From positions 105,306-169,305 of the forward strand of contig CAYGIH010000001.1 of assembly GCA_964349945.1 (NCBI GenBank): a stretch of DNA of 64,000 nucleotides, written 5' to 3'. Of this stretch, positions 1 to 59,499 are shown piece after piece. Positions within the stretch are counted from its first letter, which is position 1; each line of letters begins with the position of its first letter. Under the pieces are notes generated by a model that saw only the letters and a program-made list of their open reading frames with translations, was not told the DNA's origin and did not search any database. A program made the position numbers and the translations under genes. This DNA comes from an uncultured Candidatus Saccharibacteria bacterium. Its GTDB lineage: Bacteria; Patescibacteriota; Minisyncoccia; Phycocordibacterales; Zambryskibacteraceae.

Positions 1-53
1 GCATTCCCCTGAAGAGGGAAGGGTCCCCAGTTCGAACCTGGGTCTTGGCACCA
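1..53 (+). tRNA. 5'-truncated tRNA, 3' portion only, with long variable arm and encoded CCA
   Basis: T-arm CCCAG-TTCGAAC-CTGGG is followed by acceptor 3' strand, a discriminator and CCA at 49-53. The 5' part lies outside the window. Confidence 0.4.
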
Positions 54-10684: not shown

Positions 10685-10927
10685 TCAGATGTGAGCGGGG
10701 CGGAGCTCGCATTCACGCACACCGAAGCCAAATTTCCTTTCGAGGAATTCGATCACATATTCTGGTTCTCCTTGTGACCATTCCCCGGGTGATTTGAGCC
10801 GAGTGATTCGGCAACGTTTGTTGTCATTGATTCTGACACCAGACGTGCCTCGGTTTATGAATATGCAAACCTGACCAACATGATATCTGTGCCGAACTGG
10901 TTCATCAGCTGTCATGCTGATCTCCAT
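10685..10927 (-). CDS. hypothetical protein (elevated-GC gene)
   Basis: 80-aa ORF. Overlaps the upstream gene by 23 nt. GC is clearly above background. Confidence 0.4.
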   Translation of the reverse strand: MEISMTADEPVRHRYHVGQVCIFINRGTSGVRINDNKRCRITRLKSPGEWSQGEPEYVIEFLERKFGFGVRECELRPAHI

Positions 10928-11276
10928 CGTAAGGCGCGATTTTCAGCTCACGCTTGAGTCGCCTCTCTCGCTCTTCGAGGTGGTAGAGCTGGACTCGATC
11001 GCTGTCAATTGCAGCAGAACGCTTGGCTCGACGGGCATTCCAGGCATCTGTGCTGTAGTCTTCGGCTCTGTCCATACTTCGGACATCAGCGGTCATCTGG
11101 ATGATGCTCGTACTAAACTCGAGAATTCGCTTCTGAACATCTGCGAGTTCGGTCTGCTTCTTTTCAACCTTGCGCTTCTTGTACTCTCGCACCGCGTCCT
11201 TGATGACACCAGAGCTGAGAAGTAGAATTGCAAGGACAAACAGCAGAACAAAGATGTCGATCACGTAGCGCATCAT
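10905..11276 (-). CDS. hypothetical membrane-anchored coiled-coil protein (elevated-GC gene)
   Basis: N-terminal transmembrane segment (VIDIFVLLFVLAILLL) followed by a charged coiled-coil region. 123 aa. Confidence 0.45.
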   Translation of the reverse strand: MMRYVIDIFVLLFVLAILLLSSGVIKDAVREYKKRKVEKKQTELADVQKRILEFSTSIIQMTADVRSMDRAEDYSTDAWNARRAKRSAAIDSDRVQLYHLEERERRLKRELKIAPYDGDQHDS

Positions 11277-12004: not shown

Positions 12005-13195
12005 ATGTTAAAGAAATTGATTCGGCAGTACTATCTCTTGTCGTTCCTGTTCTCAGCAGGCGGCATGGCGATCATCAGTGCGACGTACGTCACTTTCCTC
12101 ATTCACAACGGTTTGAATTTGTTCGAAGTGAATTTGGTCAATGCGATTTTCTTTTTCACCCTCTTTATCTGCGAGATTCCAACCGGAGCCTTCGCAGATA
12201 TTTTCGGGAGGAAGCAATCGTTCGTGATGGCTTGTGCCATCACATCTCTCTCGATGTTTGTGTACGGTTTGTCCCATACATTTTGGGGCTTTGCTCTTGC
12301 AGAAAGTTTGGCCGCAGTTGGCAACACTTTCAGGAGCGGTGCCTTTCAAGCATGGTTCGTGGACAGCCTGAAGCATCATGGTTATGAAGGTTCTTATACC
12401 AAGCTTTTTGGGAGGGAGAGTCTTTATAATCGAGTCGGTGGCGGTCTCGGTTCTATCACTGGAGCTTATATCGCCGTTGTGAATCCCGCGTATCCATGGT
12501 TTTTGGGCGGGAGCATTATGTTCGTGATGACACTCATTGCCCTCAAGGTGATGAAGGAAGAATATTTTGTCCGACAGAGTTTCTCTTGGAAGAATGGTTT
12601 GAACAAGATGCTCGAGGTGGCGAAGACCAGTGTTCACTATGGAGCCACCCACAAGCCAGTGAGGTTTATCCTCATCGTCACCTTCATCGAGATCTATGCT
12701 GTGCAGGCCATCAACATGTACTGGCAACCGTTCTTTAGGCAGAGTGGAGTGAATGAACAACATCTTGGATTTCTTTTCTCTGGGATGATGCTCATGGTTG
12801 CACTCGGTGCCTACCTCGTCTCTCGGATGAACACAGAGGGCAAGGAACGAGTGATGATACTCTGGTCCATGATGTTCGTCGGGGTGATGATTTGGATAGC
12901 TTCTTTGTCACCTTGGCTCTCTGGAGCTATCCTTGCTTTCCTTCTCCACGAAGGAGGTAGGGGATTTTGGAATCCGATGAGCGACAGCTATCTCCAACAG
13001 AGGATTCCCTCCGAGGAGCGGGCAACCATCTCTTCATTCTGTTCGACGGCTCCGCACATCGGTGGGGCAGTCGGGCTCCTCGTGAGCGGTGGTATTGCCC
13101 AGATGTTTGGGATAACTGCTTCGTGGATGGTGGGTGGTGCGGTGCTCGTAGTCGGAGCATTTCTCGTTCGTAAAAACGGTTATGATTCGACCTAG
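12005..13195 (+). CDS. MFS transporter, drug:H+ antiporter-like (elevated-GC gene)
   Basis: 12-TM protein of 396 aa with MFS motif A (GAFADIFGRKQSF). GC about 50% against a background of about 35%. Confidence 0.75.
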   Translation: MLKKLIRQYYLLSFLFSAGGMAIISATYVTFLIHNGLNLFEVNLVNAIFFFTLFICEIPTGAFADIFGRKQSFVMACAITSLSMFVYGLSHTFWGFALAESLAAVGNTFRSGAFQAWFVDSLKHHGYEGSYTKLFGRESLYNRVGGGLGSITGAYIAVVNPAYPWFLGGSIMFVMTLIALKVMKEEYFVRQSFSWKNGLNKMLEVAKTSVHYGATHKPVRFILIVTFIEIYAVQAINMYWQPFFRQSGVNEQHLGFLFSGMMLMVALGAYLVSRMNTEGKERVMILWSMMFVGVMIWIASLSPWLSGAILAFLLHEGGRGFWNPMSDSYLQQRIPSEERATISSFCSTAPHIGGAVGLLVSGGIAQMFGITASWMVGGAVLVVGAFLVRKNGYDST

Positions 13196-13343: not shown

Positions 13344-13634
13344 ATGGGAGAAAAGAAACGGCTACTGCTCCTCGTCGAAGAACTTCCTTCCCAGATGAGA
13401 TCGGTTATCAAGGCATTTCATCCGACCGCGGGAGGGTTCATCGTCGAGGAAGCCAGTTCCGAACATGATGTTGAACAGGTGGGTGGGCAAACCAAACAAG
13501 ACGGGATGCTCATCACTAGCTATCAGCAACGCAAGACTGGTGAACTGTTTTTCCGTGTTGTTGACACGCGGGATAACTGGAGCACCAAGTGGTACAGGGC
13601 GCTCGCCCTCACACAACAAACTCAAATCGCCTAG
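13344..13634 (+). CDS. hypothetical protein (elevated-GC gene)
   Basis: 96-aa ORF followed directly by a terminator. The overlapping antisense ORF 13362-13625 is considered spurious. Confidence 0.4.
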   Translation: MGEKKRLLLLVEELPSQMRSVIKAFHPTAGGFIVEEASSEHDVEQVGGQTKQDGMLITSYQQRKTGELFFRVVDTRDNWSTKWYRALALTQQTQIA

Positions 13635-16169: not shown

Positions 16170-16934
16170 ATGAGGACGAGAATCGTGTTTCTGGGCCTGC
16201 TTTTGGCCCTTGTAGCACCACTCGGGGCGCAGACGGGCAAGCCGTTTGTGAAGTTCCCGCAGACGAAGGAAAGCCTCGCTCGAGCCATCGAGTACGGCCA
16301 GGACGGCGACATGAAGGTTCTCAACATCACCGCGACGGACTTCGTCAAGGAGATGAATGAGATCTACAATCTCAAGTTGGAAAATCGCGAAGACCTCGCG
16401 AATCACTTGAGAAGCTTGACTGAGATGAGGTTGCCTCAGGGCATCTCGATTCACTTCGGTCGTTTGATCGGTTCCAAGCCTGACGACAAGGGTTGGGAGA
16501 GACCCGCGCATGAGAATGAGTATGGGCTCTTAAACAAGGTGACCCAGCGCATTGAATTGTCGTTGTGGTGTGGCAACCCGACGCCCGGACTTTTGTTCGA
16601 ACCGAAAGTACCCGAGCGATTGGTGATGACTCAGGTCGAGTCACCTGAACCGGCACCTGTGTCTTCGGCACCAACGACGACGAACGCTCAAGTGGGTATC
16701 ACCACACCGACCAAGGTCGAAGTGGTGGTCTCAGGAGAAGTCAAACTCACTCCGAACACTTCGAGACGTGAGACTCATCGCAGAGTTGAGCGGAGCCACT
16801 GGTCCCGCAACTGGGGCTGGTACGTTGGGAGCTTGATCACTGGCGTCGTAGGCTACTACGCCATCGACAACAACCCTCAATGGTTCAGAAGGAGTAGGGA
16901 TGTCATTGACATTGACATCAAACTGCACCGATGA
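16170..16934 (+). CDS. secreted hypothetical protein (elevated-GC gene)
   Basis: Signal peptide MRTRIVFLGLLLALVAPLGAQ. GC about 58%. No known motifs. Confidence 0.5.
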   Translation: MRTRIVFLGLLLALVAPLGAQTGKPFVKFPQTKESLARAIEYGQDGDMKVLNITATDFVKEMNEIYNLKLENREDLANHLRSLTEMRLPQGISIHFGRLIGSKPDDKGWERPAHENEYGLLNKVTQRIELSLWCGNPTPGLLFEPKVPERLVMTQVESPEPAPVSSAPTTTNAQVGITTPTKVEVVVSGEVKLTPNTSRRETHRRVERSHWSRNWGWYVGSLITGVVGYYAIDNNPQWFRRSRDVIDIDIKLHR

Positions 16935-17961: not shown

Positions 17962-18417
17962 CTAACGCATCAAATCCTTGAGTGCTACTTGCTTGGCTCG
18001 CCACTCGCGAAAGCGTGGATTGACGAAGAGGAAAATCCCTCCGACTGCCACCGCAGATACGAACGTCTTGGGGAAAAGGACGAATAGCTCAGCCAACCAC
18101 AATCCTAGGAAAGCTCCACAGAAGAGCCAAATACCTTCTGCGTAGTCGCCCCCCAAGAGTGACGTGATGAGGGCAAAGCAGGCGAGCAGGGTGGTGATGG
18201 TGACAGCGAAGCTGTGCTCATTCATATAGGTGAACAAGAGACCAGAGAAGAAGCAGATGCTCGGGATGACTAGCACCAGTCCGTTCTTCTTCTTCACTTG
18301 TTTACGGAACCAATGAATAAGGCCCACAAAAAGTGCAGTCATGGAACCTCCAGAGGGTGGGGAAGCGGAAAGTGTCTTCCAATATAATAACACAAATTGC
18401 AAATTTTGCAATATCAC
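17962..18417 (-). CDS. hypothetical integral membrane protein (elevated-GC gene)
   Basis: Four or more hydrophobic helices. GC well above neighbours. Start codon uncertain; an internal Met (MTALF…) is also possible. Confidence 0.45.
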   Translation of the reverse strand: MILQNLQFVLLYWKTLSASPPSGGSMTALFVGLIHWFRKQVKKKNGLVLVIPSICFFSGLLFTYMNEHSFAVTITTLLACFALITSLLGGDYAEGIWLFCGAFLGLWLAELFVLFPKTFVSAVAVGGIFLFVNPRFREWRAKQVALKDLMR

Positions 18418-24404: not shown

Positions 24405-25529
24405 TTATTTTACTTCCTTAGCGTCTTTGTCTAAGTAGGTGAGAGCCATTTTTTGTTCCTTGGCATCAAAGAGAGTAATCTTGAACGGATAAGTTTTACC
24501 CATTTCTAGTTTCTCCTTGAGTTTGTCTTCACCTCCGAATTCACTAACATGCACGAGTCCAGCTACTCCTTCTTCTATAGAAGCAAGCGCACCATGCTTG
24601 TTGTATTTGATGATTACTCCTTCTACCTGCATATCCTTCTTGTATTTCTTCTCTGCTTCCTTCCAAGGGTTTTCTTTCAAAGCCTTGATAGAGAGGGAAA
24701 TCTTTTCATCTTTGATTTCTATAATCTTGACCTTCACTTTCTCTCCTATCCTATACATAGCCTTTGGATTCTCGACTAGACCCCAATCGATTTCAGAAAT
24801 ATGTACGAGTCCTTCCAAACCTTCTTCTAATTTCACAAAGATTCCAAAGTCTACCAATCCAGTCACTTCACCAGTGAGTTCATCGCCCAAGGCATAGTGA
24901 GAGATAATTGATTCTTTGTTCTTTGTTTCTGGAGACTTCTCAGAGAAAATAAGTTTACCTTCTTTTGGATTGGCACCAATGATAGTAACCAAAAGTTTTG
25001 TGCCTACGAGTTTCTTTAATTCAGCGAGGATGCTGTCCTTGTCTCCGTCTGTCACACGTGGATAGTGCTCAGGCTTAAGTTGTGAGGCAGGAAGGAAACC
25101 CGAGATACCTTGCCAGTTGATAATGAGCCCACCCTTGTTGGCTTCGGTGATAGGGAGTTCGAAAACTCTCTTTTCATTGATAGCCGTATCTGCTTCACTC
25201 CAAATAAGAGCTTGTCTAGCTTCCTTGAGTGAGATTTCTATATAACCCTCTTTGCCTCCGATGCCTACAACCTTACCAGCGACAATGTCACCAATGTTTA
25301 TTTTCTTGATGATGTCTCTGGCATTTAGAAACTCTCGTCCATAGATAATACCGGTGCCGAAAGGAGCGAGGTTTATATAAACCGCACCCTTATCAACGCT
25401 TATCACTGGACCCTCAACTACATCATCAATTGATGGTGGAGTGGTGGTGTTTAAAACAATCTGACCCATGAGGCTCGTGTCTTCTACGACAGGAGCCTTT
25501 TCCTTCTTAACTTTTTCTTTTTTAATCAA
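24405..25529 (-). CDS. rpsA: 30S ribosomal protein S1 (four S1 domains)
   Basis: Repeated S1 RNA-binding domain patterns (GxV…G.FV.L…GL.H.SE). 374 aa. Confidence 0.75.
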   Translation of the reverse strand: MIKKEKVKKEKAPVVEDTSLMGQIVLNTTTPPSIDDVVEGPVISVDKGAVYINLAPFGTGIIYGREFLNARDIIKKINIGDIVAGKVVGIGGKEGYIEISLKEARQALIWSEADTAINEKRVFELPITEANKGGLIINWQGISGFLPASQLKPEHYPRVTDGDKDSILAELKKLVGTKLLVTIIGANPKEGKLIFSEKSPETKNKESIISHYALGDELTGEVTGLVDFGIFVKLEEGLEGLVHISEIDWGLVENPKAMYRIGEKVKVKIIEIKDEKISLSIKALKENPWKEAEKKYKKDMQVEGVIIKYNKHGALASIEEGVAGLVHVSEFGGEDKLKEKLEMGKTYPFKITLFDAKEQKMALTYLDKDAKEVK

Positions 25530-25639
25530 AATATAATGGCCACTTCCGGCCCTTTGCCTCAGAGTGTTTGCCTAGGCAGAAGGGGGTAACGGTTGTGGGA
25601 ACTAATAAACTGCAAGGCAGTTGGGTTATAAAGTAACAG

Positions 25640-26330
25640 AAAAATGAAAATTTGTAAACAGAAAACGCGTCCCGTTCGGGTACGCGTTGCTTTTAACTTG
25701 ATGTTTCAGGGTGCTGCCCCGTGGTCGCCGTCGAATGTTGTTGTCGTCCGGCGACCACGGGCACTACGCGCCGTTTCCTACGTGGCCTGTGGCCCAGTGG
25801 TCCTGATGAAGTATTGTGACGAGCCCGTTGGTTTCATCCAGTAAAGGATTACTACCAGGTTGGGTTAAGCTTCTGGCAGAAGCTCCGTTGCTCTTCACCT
25901 CCTAGTTTCCAGGAGCGGTCCTGGTGGCGACGTTGATGGCCGAAGTGCGGGGTTGACGACCCCAGCGACGTCGAGGCACCGTAAGCCTCTTTGGAGTCGC
26001 ACGCTCGCGTGCGGGCGGCATCGAAGCCGGCCGGCGAGCGGGCGCACTCACAGTGCGAACGGTGGTTGACCCACGTTAGCGTACCTACGTCATTGTTCTG
26101 CCTCCTGGCAGTCGGCGTTTGGCGTCAACTGTGGCGCTTAATGCCACACGAAGCGAATGAGGGACTTCCGGGTGCCCTCGACCCAAGCCGCGCGGTCCGC
26201 CTGTTGAAATCACAGAGCGGGCCACGCAAACCCCGCGACACGGCAGTGCGATGGCCAGATGGCTCCGCTACCGCCCATGAACTTTCGAACGCGGGGCAAG
26301 AAACATCAAGTTGTAAAGATCACTACTATT
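25640..26330. ncRNA. candidate structured non-coding RNA(s), identity unresolved (high-GC, ORF-free, hairpin-dense)
   Basis: GC roughly 60-65% over about 700 bp in a roughly 35% GC genome. Only junk-like ORFs. Many strong hairpins (for example gtggtcgccg…cggcgaccac and acgcgtcccgttcgggtacgcgt with a T-run). Strand not determined. Confidence 0.4.
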
Positions 26331-26457
26331 TCATCCTAGCATACTATATTGATATTGTCAAGCAATTAAATAATAAAATTGTCAATAGAGGCTAAACAGA
26401 GCCATATTTATAAAAATATGATTGGTATTTATAGACTGAATATGATAGAATATTCAT

Positions 26458-27093
26458 ATGATAATCACTTTCCAGGGTTTGGAGTCATTTCGAGTTTCTC
26501 AAGGAGACACCACTATTGCTCTTAATCCAGTTTCCAAGGATTCTAAATTCAAATCCTCTAAATCAGGAGCAGACATAACCCTCATAACCACGAATCATCC
26601 TGACCTTGCAGGCAAGGATTCTACCAGCCGTGGAGACAAAGAATCTTTTATTATTAACGGTCCTGGAGAATATGAAGTAAAGGATGTTGGGGTAAAAGGC
26701 TTTCTTTCTGAAAGTATGTATGGAGGTGAAAAACGAATTAATACTATTTACCAGATTTCCTTTGAAGGTATGAACCTCTGTTTCCTTGGTGCTCTTTCGA
26801 ATCCTTCGCTTTCTCCAGAGACGATTGAAGCCATTGAAGATGTGGATATTCTCTTTGTCCCTATTGGTGGTGAAGGAGTGCTTGATCCAGAAGCGGCTTA
26901 TAAGCTTGCAGTTTCACTTGAGCCAAAGATAATTATTCCTATGCATTATGGACAGATTGGGGATAAGAACGCTCTTAAACAATTCATAAAGGAAGGTGGC
27001 GAAGAAGATGTGGAGTCAGTAGACAAATTAGTGGTGAAGAAGAAAGACCTCGAAGGACGTGAGGGTGATGTTATTATCCTTAAGGAAGAATAG
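26458..27093 (+). CDS. MBL-fold (Lactamase_B_3-like) protein, metal-binding motif degenerate
   Basis: MIITFQGLESFRV…IALNP… and …ILFVPIGG…PMHYG pattern. The canonical HxHxDH motif is replaced by TNHPDLA. Confidence 0.45.
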   Translation: MIITFQGLESFRVSQGDTTIALNPVSKDSKFKSSKSGADITLITTNHPDLAGKDSTSRGDKESFIINGPGEYEVKDVGVKGFLSESMYGGEKRINTIYQISFEGMNLCFLGALSNPSLSPETIEAIEDVDILFVPIGGEGVLDPEAAYKLAVSLEPKIIIPMHYGQIGDKNALKQFIKEGGEEDVESVDKLVVKKKDLEGREGDVIILKEE

Positions 27094-55234: not shown

Positions 55235-55249
55235 ACACTTGCAAAGTTT

Positions 55250-55775
55250 TTTGGGTGGGTATATATTAATCCTTACCCTCAATCGGTATTCTCCGGTTGG
55301 TGGGAAACGACCACCCCTTACCAGGGCCAGTCGATGGTGAATCGTTTGGGCTCCGGGCTGTTCAACAGTTTCCGGAGTGACCTTCCGCCGTAGCTTCGGC
55401 CACGACCGTAAGGTCAGCGACACACCGATCACTTGGTAGATCTTCCTTGCTACCGCGCTTGACGCTTCGTCGAGCACTGTGATCCATTCCACGAATCCTG
55501 TGGAAGAACCCCTCAGTGTCTCCAGGGTTAAGAGAGATGCAACAAGTGCTCGTCAACGTAACGAGCAGGCGGCAGGAAGGCCGCAACCCTAGGTCGCTTC
55601 GTCGACCGGCTGCTGATACCAGACCACAACTATCCGCGTTCCGCGCGTCACAGCGGATCGGACTCTCCTGGGTCAGGCGTACAAATCGTTACGCCAAGCC
55701 TGGCCCAGTGAGAGGCTCCGATGCTCTACGAGCAACACACACCGCGACCGCAAGGCACGCGGTTTATTTTTTTTA
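55250..55775 (+). ncRNA. candidate structured non-coding RNA, identity unresolved (high-GC, ORF-free, ends in a strong intrinsic terminator)
   Basis: GC about 60% over about 500 bp. Only short overlapping junk ORFs on both strands. Numerous GC-rich helices. Some weak resemblance to RNase P RNA blocks (CCACGACC…, …CAGUGAG…) that I could not confirm. Terminator accgcg…cgcggt-T10 at 55741-55775. Confidence 0.4.
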
Positions 55776-55862
55776 TTCATTTTCCCTTTGACAAATTTAA
55801 TTTTTTATGATAATAAGGGTATAGAGCAGTTGTCCTTTTAGGCTACTTTCCAGGGGGTTTCA

Positions 55863-56729
55863 ATGCGTGCATTTCGATGGTTGTTGGGAGCAATACTGCT
55901 TATCACAGCGTGTCAGCATGACCGCTTGATCAGCATCAAGATTGACGATGGCTCAGGTCATCCAGCGGGCCCGTCTGGACCTTCTGCTCCGGCTGTTTGC
56001 CCGAGTGGTTTCAGTACGTGCACTGGGGCGCGGTGGAGCGATCTGGGGATGGCCCCACTCGACACCACGTACACCTTCAGCCACAAGCGTCACGTGCGAG
56101 GTCTCGCTTACATCCCGAGTGGTGCAAGCATCGAGATCCTCGTGCGCTCGACGCTTGGCTGTGAGGCTGTGGCCAGCACTCCGCAAGTGATTGCGACGAC
56201 GGTGTCGAATGTCTACACGGTGGATGTGGAAATGCAGGCAATCAACATTTGCTCTGACAGTACGGTCTTCAAGTTGAAGGCCGACTCGACTCAGCGCAAA
56301 GCTGTCCGTGTGACAGTAGTGTCAGCACCGGTGGTGGCGGGTTCAATCAGATTGAACCAGCCGACGACGCTTGGTGGTGTGGGTGCTACTGGGAGATACA
56401 CCTGCACAGTGACCGGCTTGTCTGATTTGAGATGCTGGTACTACAGCACCAATCCGCTTGTGGTGTCCATCGTTCAGAAGGACACGACTTACACCGTGGC
56501 CACATTCCCGTGGCCAGCCGGTGCGAATGTCGGTGGTACGTACAAGAACCTCGGTTCTGGTTCTGCGGGCATTTGTGGATTCAGCCCAAGCAATCCGGCC
56601 ATCGCGGATTGCAAGAACCACAACGTGTCTGCTGCCTCTTCTCTGATGTCCAGTTCGAACCTCATGGCTCCTGCTGAACTCCGTGAATGGGCAGTACCTG
56701 AGGTTCTCAAGAACCTTACGAAACCCTAA
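55863..56729 (+). CDS. putative lipoprotein, Cys-rich, secreted (elevated-GC gene)
   Basis: Lipobox LLITAC after a signal peptide. About 58% GC. 288 aa, no known domain. Confidence 0.5.
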   Translation: MRAFRWLLGAILLITACQHDRLISIKIDDGSGHPAGPSGPSAPAVCPSGFSTCTGARWSDLGMAPLDTTYTFSHKRHVRGLAYIPSGASIEILVRSTLGCEAVASTPQVIATTVSNVYTVDVEMQAINICSDSTVFKLKADSTQRKAVRVTVVSAPVVAGSIRLNQPTTLGGVGATGRYTCTVTGLSDLRCWYYSTNPLVVSIVQKDTTYTVATFPWPAGANVGGTYKNLGSGSAGICGFSPSNPAIADCKNHNVSAASSLMSSSNLMAPAELREWAVPEVLKNLTKP

Positions 56730-57778: not shown

Positions 57779-57904
57779 AGGCTAATTATAGCCATGTAAC
57801 ATACTTGACTTTATGTCTAGTATATGCTAGTCTAAGGGATAGAAGTAACGAGGCTAGAAAACCTCGGCTAGCCAAGTAATTGGTTTAGTGCGGTCTTTCA
57901 CATC

Positions 57905-58156
57905 ATGGAGGGAAAGATGATTTGGAGAATCTTGCTGGAAGTTGCCGTCTTTGTCTTCGTACCACTTTTTGTGGTGACGCAGATGATTGCTCCGGCTTGG
58001 AGGGGTCGACCGATGTTTCCGCTTTTCAGGAAGAAGCCGGTCGTTCTCGACAGACTCGATGCTGCCAAGAGCAGTATTGCGGACGCTGAGCTTGATCTCA
58101 GAGTTCGTGCGGTTGAGCGAGAGGCTGAGAAAATTCGCAAAAAGGCAAGCAGCTAA
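57905..58156 (+). CDS. small membrane protein (elevated-GC gene), possibly NfeD-like partner of the downstream SPFH protein
   Basis: Transmembrane segment plus coiled-coil tail. Same strand as the SPFH gene and directly upstream. High GC. Confidence 0.35.
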   Translation: MEGKMIWRILLEVAVFVFVPLFVVTQMIAPAWRGRPMFPLFRKKPVVLDRLDAAKSSIADAELDLRVRAVEREAEKIRKKASS

Positions 58157-58224
58157 CACCCGCAATGCAGTAATGTTGACTCACGAATCAAAAAATCCAC
58201 GCAATAACCTAGGGGAGGTACCAC

Positions 58225-59499
58225 ATGGATCGTTACGAAGATATTCGCTCCGGAATTGGCTCTGATTGGAGCGTTCGCAAAATCATCATCACGGTGGTGT
58301 CGGTTTTCGGCGCTATCGTTTTGATGGTTTTCGGCAGCAAGATGTTCGAGAACAATGGTGGCAGTGAGATCATGGTTGTGCAAGCGCCGTTTTCCGGCAA
58401 GTTCACCGTCTACAAGACAGCCGGCATGAAGTGGCAAGGGGGTGGAAGTGTTACGACCTACAAACTGCGTGAGCAGTTTTGGTTCTCTTCCGACCCCAAG
58501 CATGGAAGTGAAAAGGACGAGTCGATTGCGATTCGTTTCAATGACAACGGCACCGGACGGCTTTCTGGCTCAATCGCTTGGGAGATGCCTCTGTCGGACA
58601 GCCTTATCGTCCAGCTTCACAGGAAGTATCATGGTGAAGAGGCCATTCAGCGTCAGCTCATCAGTACTGTGGTTGGCAAGTCAGTCTTTTTGACCGGCCC
58701 GCTGATGTCTTCAACGGAGTCCAACTCCACGAAGCGCAACGATCTGCTGTCGCTGGTTAGCGATCAGGTCAATCACGGGGTCTACAAGACCGAAAGTCGA
58801 GATGAACACGTCAAGGATCCGATGACCGGCATCGATAAGACGGTGCGTGTCGTGAATCTGATTCCGAGCACGAAGGTGTCTGATCACGGGTTCGCTCGAC
58901 AGGAGAATTCTCCACTCGACGAATTCGGCATCCGTGCCTTCAATCTCTCTATCGACCAGATCCACTACGATCCGGACGTGGAGAAGCAGATCAAGGCTCA
59001 GCAGGAAGCGATCATGCAGGTTCAGACAGCCGTTGCACAGGCAAAGACTGCTGAACAGGCAGCGATCACGGCCGAGAAGAATGGTCAGGCTGAAGCAGCC
59101 AAGGCCAAGTGGGCCCAGGAAGTCATCAAGGCCAAGGAGGTCACGACTGCCGAACAGCGGAAGGAGGTAGCAAGGCTTGATGCTGATGCTGCCGAGTTCC
59201 GCAAGCTCGCGAACATTCGCGATGGTGAAGGTGAAGGACGAAAGCGGCAACTCATCATGGGTGCCGACGGCGCACTTGGCCAAAAGCTCGAGGCATGGGT
59301 GAAGGTGCAGGAGAAGTGGGCCGATGCGGTTAAGGGATACCAGGGTAACTGGGTTCCGTCTGTCGTGATGGGTAACGCTGGCAACGGCGTTGCCGGTTCT
59401 GGCGCCAATGGTCTCATCGACATGTTGATGGCTAAGACCGCCAAGGATCTTGCTCTTGACTTCCGTGCTGGTCTTAACGGACCGGTACGCGAAAAGTAA
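58225..59499 (+). CDS. SPFH/band-7 (prohibitin/HflKC-like) domain membrane protein (elevated-GC gene)
   Basis: N-terminal transmembrane segment, SPFH-like core, and a long Ala/Glu/Lys-rich coiled coil (…AQAKTAEQAAITAEKNGQAEAAKAKWAQE…). 424 aa. Confidence 0.6.
   Translation: MDRYEDIRSGIGSDWSVRKIIITVVSVFGAIVLMVFGSKMFENNGGSEIMVVQAPFSGKFTVYKTAGMKWQGGGSVTTYKLREQFWFSSDPKHGSEKDESIAIRFNDNGTGRLSGSIAWEMPLSDSLIVQLHRKYHGEEAIQRQLISTVVGKSVFLTGPLMSSTESNSTKRNDLLSLVSDQVNHGVYKTESRDEHVKDPMTGIDKTVRVVNLIPSTKVSDHGFARQENSPLDEFGIRAFNLSIDQIHYDPDVEKQIKAQQEAIMQVQTAVAQAKTAEQAAITAEKNGQAEAAKAKWAQEVIKAKEVTTAEQRKEVARLDADAAEFRKLANIRDGEGEGRKRQLIMGADGALGQKLEAWVKVQEKWADAVKGYQGNWVPSVVMGNAGNGVAGSGANGLIDMLMAKTAKDLALDFRAGLNGPVREK

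Follow-up and report, generated by a model that had tools for sequence, protein, structure and literature searches.

The locus and its GC-rich block

The window, by which we mean the whole 64-kb stretch of DNA analyzed here (GC content 40.5%), carries on its minus strand an rpsA-like gene for an S1-domain protein and, divergently oriented on its plus strand, a gene for a metallo-beta-lactamase-fold (MBL-fold) hydrolase. Between these two genes lies a GC-rich block, and the unit within it, which we designate W1, is considered here as a candidate gene for a large structured RNA. The S1-domain protein of the window was 99% identical to one on a contig of a metagenome-assembled genome labelled 'Minisyncoccia bacterium', and its next relatives were labelled Parcubacteria, Paceibacterota or Zambryskibacteria. 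Because the relatives carry these labels, we assign the window to a bacterium of the Candidate Phyla Radiation (CPR), whose members have very small genomes and a symbiotic life. The comparison set consisted of 80 loci around rpsA homologues and of contigs encoding close homologues of the MBL protein, identified below by L numbers. Locus L001 is GCA_049304015.1 and L089 is ERZ27248239; contig L088, for which the DNA run is ERR3094292, was identical to the window across W1 and its flanks.

The most GC-rich stretch of the window runs from 25655 to 26326. Averaged over 150 nt, the block at 25651-26326 peaks at 0.69 GC (mean of the window 0.405, standard deviation 0.068), the highest peak in the 64 kb, and averages over 200 nt reach 0.645-0.66 at 25900-26299. 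Open reading frames (ORFs) of at least 60 aa were limited to two in this block (25644-25844, 66 aa, and 25991-26395, 134 aa), both on the plus strand and both rich in Arg, Ala and Pro. None of the eight stop-to-stop pieces of the block (50-136 aa) matched a Pfam family at E<=1, and tblastx of the block against all fetched loci gave nucleotide-level matches only, in several frames and on both strands, with no frame-specific signal. Alignments of the conserved 3' domain described below contained 5-6 indels per species pair, with lengths that were not multiples of three, and the mismatches lacked three-base periodicity. Together with the Pfam and tblastx results, these indels and the absence of codon periodicity speak against W1 as a protein-coding gene. 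A small ORF in the 3' domain (MKPTGS...) was also rejected, since L001 lacks a start codon for it, its length differs (19 versus 47 codons), and there is no ribosome-binding site ahead of it. The first-pass annotation, made from the letters of the sequence, had described an ORF-free, hairpin-dense, high-GC block upstream of rpsA and had named a conserved protein encoded there as one case that would overturn an RNA gene; its description of reading frames and location was borne out, and no such protein was found.

The hairpins of the block are likewise real. W1 folded better than its dinucleotide shuffles (z-scores of -6.1 on the plus and -4.8 on the minus strand, and of -5.3 and -6.9 in a second run). 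GC-rich protein genes also occur in the window, with a GC content at third codon positions (GC3) of 0.58-0.69, compared to mostly 0.25-0.4 in ordinary genes, and 500-nt pieces of these genes gave folding z-scores of -1.6 to -4.3. Because such coding genes also fold better than shuffles, composition and z-score alone do not identify an RNA gene here, and after this control we rejected the folding z-score as proof of structure in W1. The high GC content that the first-pass annotation took as a sign of an RNA gene is therefore genuine, but it is weaker evidence than was assumed.

Anatomy of the W1 unit

W1 would form a single transcription unit of about 670 nt, extending from about 26326 to about 25656 on the minus strand, which is also the strand of rpsA (Table 1). 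Its promoter belongs to a rare kind in this DNA, as only five sites of the form TTGAC[AT]-16..18-TAnn[AT]T were found in the 64 kb. The junction motif lies about 14 nt past the predicted start, directly ahead of a helix, P1, that joins the two ends of the unit. The arms of P1 are separated by 592 nt; the helix forms in minimum-energy folds and encloses the whole GC-rich body of W1, and a short linker leads from its 3' strand to the terminator hairpin. Read on the minus strand, this hairpin and its U-rich tail are ACGCGUACCCGAACGGGACGCGU UUUCUGUUU, and the U-tract runs into TTTACA, the -35 element of the rpsA promoter. A simple terminator scan listed the W1 terminator on neither strand, possibly because of the bulge in its stem.

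Three statements of the first-pass annotation bear on this anatomy. The terminator-like hairpin that it reported does exist, but not at 25672-25705, and the plus-strand orientation that it implied found no support, because the orientation of the promoter and terminator, the U-rich tail, and G.U pairs in the conserved hairpin all point to the minus strand. Its suggestion that the block may hold two RNAs was likewise not supported: the perfect 13-bp P1 closes the whole body, and there is one promoter and one terminator, so that W1 is best described as one unit.

Table 1. Positions of W1, its parts and its neighbors in the window
Feature	Position	Strand	Basis or remark
S1-domain gene, rpsA-like, 374 aa	24405-25529	-	gene calls
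rpsA leader	25530-25623	-	covariation among relatives
rpsA promoter (TTTACA ... TACTTT), outside the RNA but abutting its U-tract	25624-25658	-	conserved in relatives including L092
Intrinsic terminator of W1: bulged GC hairpin of 9-10 bp (25665-25687), then UUUUCUGUUU	25656-25687	-	hairpin search and fold
P1, 3' strand (GAAACAUCAAGUU)	25695-25707	-	complement of 26300-26312; group helix test
CACCCU element of 3' domain	25707-25714	-	alignment
Conserved 3' domain	25708-25975	-	alignments with relatives
3' hairpin (CCCGUGGUCGCCG ... CGGCGACCACGGG), 15 bp	25718-25761	-	sole internal helix with covariation support
Conserved motif CUUCAUCAGGACCACUGGGCCACAGGCC of 3' domain	25784-25811	-	alignment
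Conserved motif CCAACGGGCUCGU of 3' domain	25819-25831	-	alignment
Shine-Dalgarno-like (SD-like) motif AGGAGGUGAAGA of 3' domain	25892-25903	-	alignment
Hairpin CCAGGA/UCCUGG of 3' domain	25909-25924	-	alignment/fold
Hairpin GGGGU/ACCCC of 3' domain	25949-25963	-	alignment/fold
Variable 5' domain, about 320 nt, GC about 0.65	25976-26299	-	predicted long irregular arm (single-sequence fold)
P1, 5' strand (AACUUGAUGUUUC)	26300-26312	-	13 nt, 100% complementary to 25695-25707
5' junction motif UUUAC/AA, immediately before P1	26311-26317	-	sequence reading
Putative start of W1	about 26326	-	predicted from the promoter
W1 promoter: TTGACA, 17-nt spacer, TG-n-TAGGAT (extended -10)	26333-26361	-	10/12 hexamer matches, TG before second hexamer
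MBL-fold hydrolase gene	26458-27093	+	gene calls

Just upstream of the W1 promoter (about 26385-26400), a conserved small hairpin, GGCU-n6-AGCC, is located within ATATGGCTCTGTTTAGCC. The same hairpin was present at the equivalent position in L001, L089, L092, L005, L006, L097, L100, L101 and L104, and could be an operator or the remnant of a terminator.

Conservation among close relatives

Homologues of W1 at the sequence level were found in two further species, represented by L001 (also L094-L096; 440 nt) and L089 (also L090 and L091; 406 nt), and L003 carries a 3' fragment of a W1-type unit where its contig ends. W1, L001 and L089 have in common the promoter, junction, P1 and terminator, along with a 3' domain of about 250 nt. 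The 5' domain of W1 could not be aligned to its relatives and is much shorter in L001 and L089, the arm measuring about 130 nt in L089 as against about 320 nt in W1.

To judge the constraint on the 3' domain, we compared it with coding and leader sequences of the same loci, which represent different species and not strains of one. Among W1, L001 and L089, the 3' domain was 71-77% identical over 197-208 aligned nt. Four-fold degenerate sites of the window were 48-56% identical to those of L001 or L089 in the MBL gene and gyrA, and 66-72% identical in rpsA, while the covarying rpsA leader was 60-66% identical to L001 and L089, below the W1 3' domain. All members of the group had a GC content of 56-62%, although GC3 is mostly 0.25-0.4 in the ordinary genes of the window. 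The pattern argues for selection on non-coding sequence, and on high GC over the whole unit, because the 3' domain lies above the synonymous level of the MBL gene and gyrA, accepts frame-breaking indels, and belongs to a unit whose GC content is kept within this range.

Two helices were supported by compensatory changes. The 3' hairpin comprised 15 pairs in four sequences, with 96.7% of cells paired and four pairs changed on both sides, values that were reached in 4/500 shuffles, and its G.U cells belong to the minus strand. In the test of P1, the 5' segment was set to the 14 nt that follow the junction, and its best partner was sought in the last 170-30 nt of each unit, with 1000 dinucleotide shuffles for reference. 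Fisher's combined probability was 1e-4 for three close members and 7e-4 for five distant ones. The sequences of P1 vary by lineage (CUUGAUGUUU, GCUGUUGCU, GAAGAAGUU, GAUGAUGUC, UGUUGUC) with complementarity maintained and with G.U pairs on the minus strand. Covariation supports the 15-bp 3' hairpin and, across the group, the end-joining helix P1. This short-segment shuffle test was used in place of long duplex predictions (ends against ends, and the RNA against the rpsA leader), which we discarded, since any long GC-rich sequence yields large energies and the predictions were therefore uninformative.

The 3' domain also contains nine conserved nucleotides that resemble a Shine-Dalgarno (SD) sequence, AGGAGGUGA, within the SD-like motif of Table 1. 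They are kept in the close members, and RNAalifold pairs them with CACCCU, CACCUC or CAUCUCC (the CACCYC element) near the 3' end.

Distribution of the unit

Units of 370 to about 940 nt were present between the MBL-fold gene and rpsA in W1, L001, L089, L002, L005, L006, L012, L099 and L104, and in L003, L093, L097 and L100 part of a unit is found where the contig ends. In the more distant relatives (L002, L005, L006, L012, L099 and L104, with L093, L097 and L100 in part), GC-rich and ORF-free units of 406 to about 940 nt occupy the matching slot in the matching orientation. They have a promoter of the W1 type, an (A/U)UAC/A(A) junction, a terminator, and a helix in which the segment after the junction pairs with one close to the 3' end, the latter being preceded at a short distance by a GC hairpin. 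The promoter signature TTGACA...TGnTAnnAT precedes the unit in 11 relatives (L001, L089, L093, L002, L012, L099, L005, L006, L097, L100 and L104). The junction reads UUUACAA in W1, L089 and L093, AUACAA in L002, L006 and L012, AUACA in L099, AUCACAA in L005 and CUUCCAA in L001. A regular expression for promoter plus junction recovered five distinct members. The terminator hairpin of W1 is also found in L001, and different combinations of hairpin and U-tract stand at this position in L089, L002, L012, L099, L005, L006 and L104.

Profile searches reached less far. An nhmmer profile of the 3' domain, run on all related loci, detected the W1, L001 and L089 types only, and a covariance model of this domain (R1) recovered the known close members and, beyond them, the 3' hairpin by itself, at E 9e-4 in L003 and with weak scores in L002 and L104. 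The unit was missing from the MBL-rpsA locus in L007 and L004, and most of the 80 rpsA loci had no GC-rich block at the position of W1.

The rpsA promoter and leader

Downstream of W1, rpsA has a leader of about 95-120 nt, in which two nested helices surround a conserved GGCAAACACUC loop. We compared this leader in the window, L001, L089, L092, L002, L004, L005 and L006, and compensatory changes were present in 11/14 predicted pairs across these eight relatives. The leader matched no Rfam family, and is a candidate for an autoregulatory leader of S1. Because the terminator of W1 is followed by the promoter of rpsA and then by this covarying leader, W1 and the rpsA leader are separate elements.

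The MBL-rpsA slot and other GC-rich features

The intergenic slot that separates the MBL gene from rpsA is a cassette hot spot, the cassettes being small GC-rich genes for secreted or membrane proteins. Each cassette gene has a near-consensus promoter and its own terminator, and the number and content of the cassettes differ among close relatives. Cassette genes were seen between the MBL gene and rpsA in L004, L005, L006, L093, L097, L098, L099, L100 and L104, and cassette genes on the opposite strand occurred at the slot in L018, L019, L063 and L079. In L098 (reverse complement of 1-1240, first 300 nt or so), the first cassette position is taken by a GC-rich unit of about 190 nt that has a promoter and a terminator and lacks the UACAA junction; this unit may represent either a small RNA or a shortened form of the large one.

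Elsewhere in the window, GC-rich protein genes are located at 10905-11276, 12005-13195, 13344-13634, 16170-16934, 17962-18417, 55863-56729, 57854-58165 and 58225-59499. They include an MFS transporter, an SPFH protein and a lipoprotein-like protein, and by their composition resemble a separate pool of accessory genes. Another GC-rich unit without ORFs, of about 500 nt (W2; 55239-55778, plus strand, GC 0.58), lies between a Dus gene and a lipoprotein-like gene. W2 has a TTGCAA-17-TATATT promoter, a terminator consisting of a hairpin and a T-run, and folding z-scores of -4.0 to -5.4; it had no Rfam match and no similarity to W1.

Searches for known RNA families and further copies

Scanning the window with all 4227 families of Rfam 15 (cmscan, gathering thresholds) returned 11 tRNAs and no other match, and none of the tRNAs lies in W1. 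With relaxed filters, the region 25400-26600 gave only two chance matches at E<=10 (E 5-8). The corresponding blocks of related loci yielded nothing, either in 14 loci at the gathering score or in eight loci at E<=5. ARAGORN also reported 11 tRNAs and zero transfer-messenger RNA (tmRNA) in the window. No covariance-model match to RNase P RNA, tmRNA, signal recognition particle (SRP) RNA, 6S, ROOL, GOLLD, HEARO, OLE or raiA was obtained in W1 or its relatives, and these families are excluded as far as covariance models can see. The candidates named in the first-pass annotation (RNase P, tmRNA, SRP, 6S, ROOL, GOLLD and HEARO) are all among them. The literature searches returned no description of such an RNA.

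Copies of W1 outside its locus were also sought. There was no second copy in the window, and blastn of W1 against phage and plasmid collections gave no match. A metagenome pattern scan with the best conserved 20-mer returned seven chance matches on unrelated GC-rich contigs, and scans of viral contigs with two W1 motifs returned nothing or chance matches only. When 5.8 billion predicted proteins were searched with the spurious antisense ORFs of three members, only the L089 query sequence itself was recovered.

Interpretation

We consider it probable, although well short of certain, that W1 is one independently transcribed non-coding RNA gene of about 670 nt, and that it belongs to an RNA family not described before and confined to a single lineage of Parcubacteria (Minisyncoccia). 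The structured RNA gene proposed in the first-pass annotation is thus supported as the most likely content of the block by the promoter, the terminator, P1, the covarying hairpin and the constraint on the 3' domain. Whether the units of the relatives make up, with W1, a new class of large structured RNA (370 to about 940 nt) in one Parcubacteria lineage is in our estimate an even question; such a class would combine a conserved 3' core and an end-joining helix with a 5' arm that expands freely, would be very strongly promoted, and would keep a constant position next to the S1 gene. The W1 RNA is probably abundant.

Several points weigh against this interpretation. The transcription start, the ends and the stability of the RNA are deduced from sequence features, and the sequence of W1 alone yields no function. 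The strand assignment rests mainly on the promoter and terminator; the consensus folding energy was nearly equal on both strands and barely favored the sense strand. The folding z-score of W1 is not decisive, with coding-gene controls reaching -4.3. Covariation, which the first-pass annotation had proposed as a check, was found for the 3' hairpin and P1, but in the whole predicted 3' domain (49 pairs, three compensated) it did not exceed shuffles (205/500). The remainder of the 3' domain is highly conserved and thinly sampled, and the fold of W1 beyond the two supported helices is a prediction. Sequence-level homologues were limited to three full units and one fragment in everything searched. 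What the distant members have in common with W1 is architecture and end motifs, their sequences being otherwise unrelated, so that their homology is architectural and not proven. Part of the constraint signal could also stem from a recent lateral exchange of the cassette among the species compared. Finally, L092, whose MBL protein is 90% identical to that of the window, has kept the promoter with only about 30 nt in place of the RNA, and because L092, L007 and L004 lack the unit, the RNA would seem to be dispensable in some lineages.

Alternative explanations

Four other explanations of W1 were weighed. It could be a long structured 5' leader, or cis regulator, of rpsA, with read-through from the W1 promoter tuning S1 synthesis by attenuation, processing or S1 binding. 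This would agree with the position of W1, which directly adjoins rpsA on the same strand, with its U-tract abutting the rpsA -35, and with an rpsA neighborhood that is constant in all members. It would also agree with the arrangement in L092, where about 27 nt separate the upstream promoter from the rpsA -35 and no convincing hairpin is seen, as if the promoters were in tandem. Nevertheless, we regard a cis leader as unlikely. The unit of every member ends in a GC hairpin and U-tract, rpsA has its own promoter and a separate, strongly covarying leader, and the RNA and rpsA are separated in L005 and L006 by an entire small gene that has a promoter and a terminator of its own. The pairing of the 5' and 3' ends also suits a discrete RNA.

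W1 could alternatively be non-functional GC-rich DNA, such as a decayed accessory gene in an insertion hot spot, the hairpins of which would be a by-product of composition. Small GC-rich ORFs for secreted or membrane proteins do occupy the slot in L004, L005, L006, L093, L097-L100 and L104, the GC-rich coding genes of the window fold better than shuffles too, the 5' two-thirds of W1 cannot be aligned even to the closest relatives, and the unit is absent in L092. Decay would, however, have to coexist with a 3' domain conserved well above the four-fold sites of the MBL gene and gyrA, with a GC content of about 60% across species whose MBL and gyrA synonymous sites are near saturation, and with a promoter and a terminator that every member has kept intact. 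The two ends of the unit have stayed complementary in the different lineages, compensated pairs occur in the 3' hairpin, and W1 shows no protein-level similarity to neighboring ORFs (Pfam, tblastx). Considering this evidence together, we find decayed DNA an improbable explanation.

The possibility that W1 is the relic of a small non-autonomous mobile element, either a miniature inverted-repeat transposable element (MITE) or an element of the IS200/IS605 type, that settled downstream of a strong promoter and has P1 as its terminal inverted repeats, appears highly unlikely. The ends of W1 are indeed 13-bp perfect inverted repeats, and presence of the unit varies among relatives. The sequence TTTACAA occurs on both sides of the unit, at the W1 5' junction (26311-26317) and at the rpsA -35 right after the terminator (25652-25658), although the latter copy is 40 nt beyond the right repeat. 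The TTAC of the left flank and the TCAA of the right end resemble IS608 cleavage sites, which we take to be a coincidence; both this resemblance and the TTTACAA repeat are treated in this way because W1 is single copy and syntenic. The inverted repeats are, moreover, not outermost at the 3' side, where about 40 nt including the terminator lie beyond them. W1 occurs once in the window, with no other copy in phages, plasmids, the metagenome and viral pattern scans or the antisense-ORF protein search, and its locus is constant across species with near-saturated synonymous sites. No transposase, TnpA, TnpB or IscB gene was noticed among the inspected ORFs and called genes around the unit, and L092, which lacks the unit, does not provide a clean, precise empty site.

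Finally, a highly divergent universal RNA (RNase P RNA, tmRNA or SRP RNA) missed by standard models would fit the size, the GC island in an AT-rich genome, the P1-like closing helix and the strong promoter, and none of these three RNAs was found elsewhere in the 64-kb window, but it is extremely improbable given the lack of an Rfam match at relaxed E<=10 in the window or in eight relatives, the negative ARAGORN result, the absence of the unit at the locus in L092, L007 and most of the 80 rpsA loci, and a length and sequence that change far faster than expected of a universal RNA.

Proposed role and significance

If W1 is a free-standing RNA gene, its product would fold as a closed multi-helix body. 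Sequestration of the RNA ends in P1 may protect against exonucleases, or may define a processing site at the UAC/AA junction. The conserved 3' core would be the working module of the RNA, and the GC-rich 5' arm a freely expanding appendage. We favor an action of the RNA in trans, either as a stable scaffold or as the RNA component of a ribonucleoprotein, over a role as the rpsA leader. Any connection with translation is speculative, and is raised here because of the constant S1-gene neighborhood and because AGGAGGUGA is able to pair with the CACCYC element. The SD-like and anti-SD-like elements might let the RNA act on the ribosome or on S1. Three observations, however, point different ways: the constant place beside the S1 gene, the pairing of the SD-like motif, and the loss of the unit in some relatives.

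A strongly promoted RNA of 0.4-0.9 kb that is under constraint while neighboring synonymous sites are near saturation is costly, and a function is to be expected of it. Only a few bacterial RNA classes are known to exceed about 400 nt in length, and several of these, namely OLE, ROOL and GOLLD, form unusual assemblies. If the interpretation of W1 is true, it would represent a new 'ornate' RNA, found in organisms whose genomes are among the smallest of all bacteria, and a new class from an uncultured phylum would lengthen the short list of large bacterial RNAs. W1 would also be a concrete target for metatranscriptomics, chemical probing and cryo-electron microscopy. In addition, the rpsA leader and the hot spot of secreted-protein cassettes at this locus bear on the regulation of translation and on host interaction.

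Comparison with known systems

The structured RNAs of IS200/IS605 elements (HEARO or omega RNA, and the right-end RNA) are, like W1, GC-rich and highly structured, with hairpins near both ends. Unlike these elements, W1 has no HEARO match, is present in single copy and is syntenic; pairing of the two ends is not known as a feature of this family. Leaders of ribosomal protein genes resemble W1 in being located directly upstream of such a gene and on the same strand. In the case of W1, a terminator and the rpsA promoter intervene (Table 1), as does a whole gene in L005 and L006, and units of the W1 type are 4-9 times longer than typical leaders. Bacterial RNase P RNA shares with the group a helix joining the 5' and 3' ends (the 13-bp P1, which is not diagnostic, as such helices are common to many RNAs), a length in keeping with the 370-940 nt of these units, and the appearance of a GC island in an AT-rich genome. 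However, W1 did not match the RNase P covariance model (P4, CR-I to CR-V), and the unit is missing at the locus in close relatives. By eye, in place of a dedicated motif scan, GGAAGUCC was seen only inside a local hairpin, with no P4-like long-range pair.

The ornate RNAs (ROOL, GOLLD, OLE and raiA) differ from W1 in several respects: W1 has no match to their covariance models, and its locus, flanked by the MBL-fold gene and rpsA, showed no association with a tRNA cluster or prophage. The length of the W1-type unit varies about 2.5-fold among relatives, and its covariation is limited to two helices. Yet W1 resembles these RNAs in being several hundred nucleotides long, GC-rich and dense in hairpins, in its apparently free-standing arrangement with a promoter and a terminator, in its restriction to one lineage, and in having a function that is not evident from sequence.

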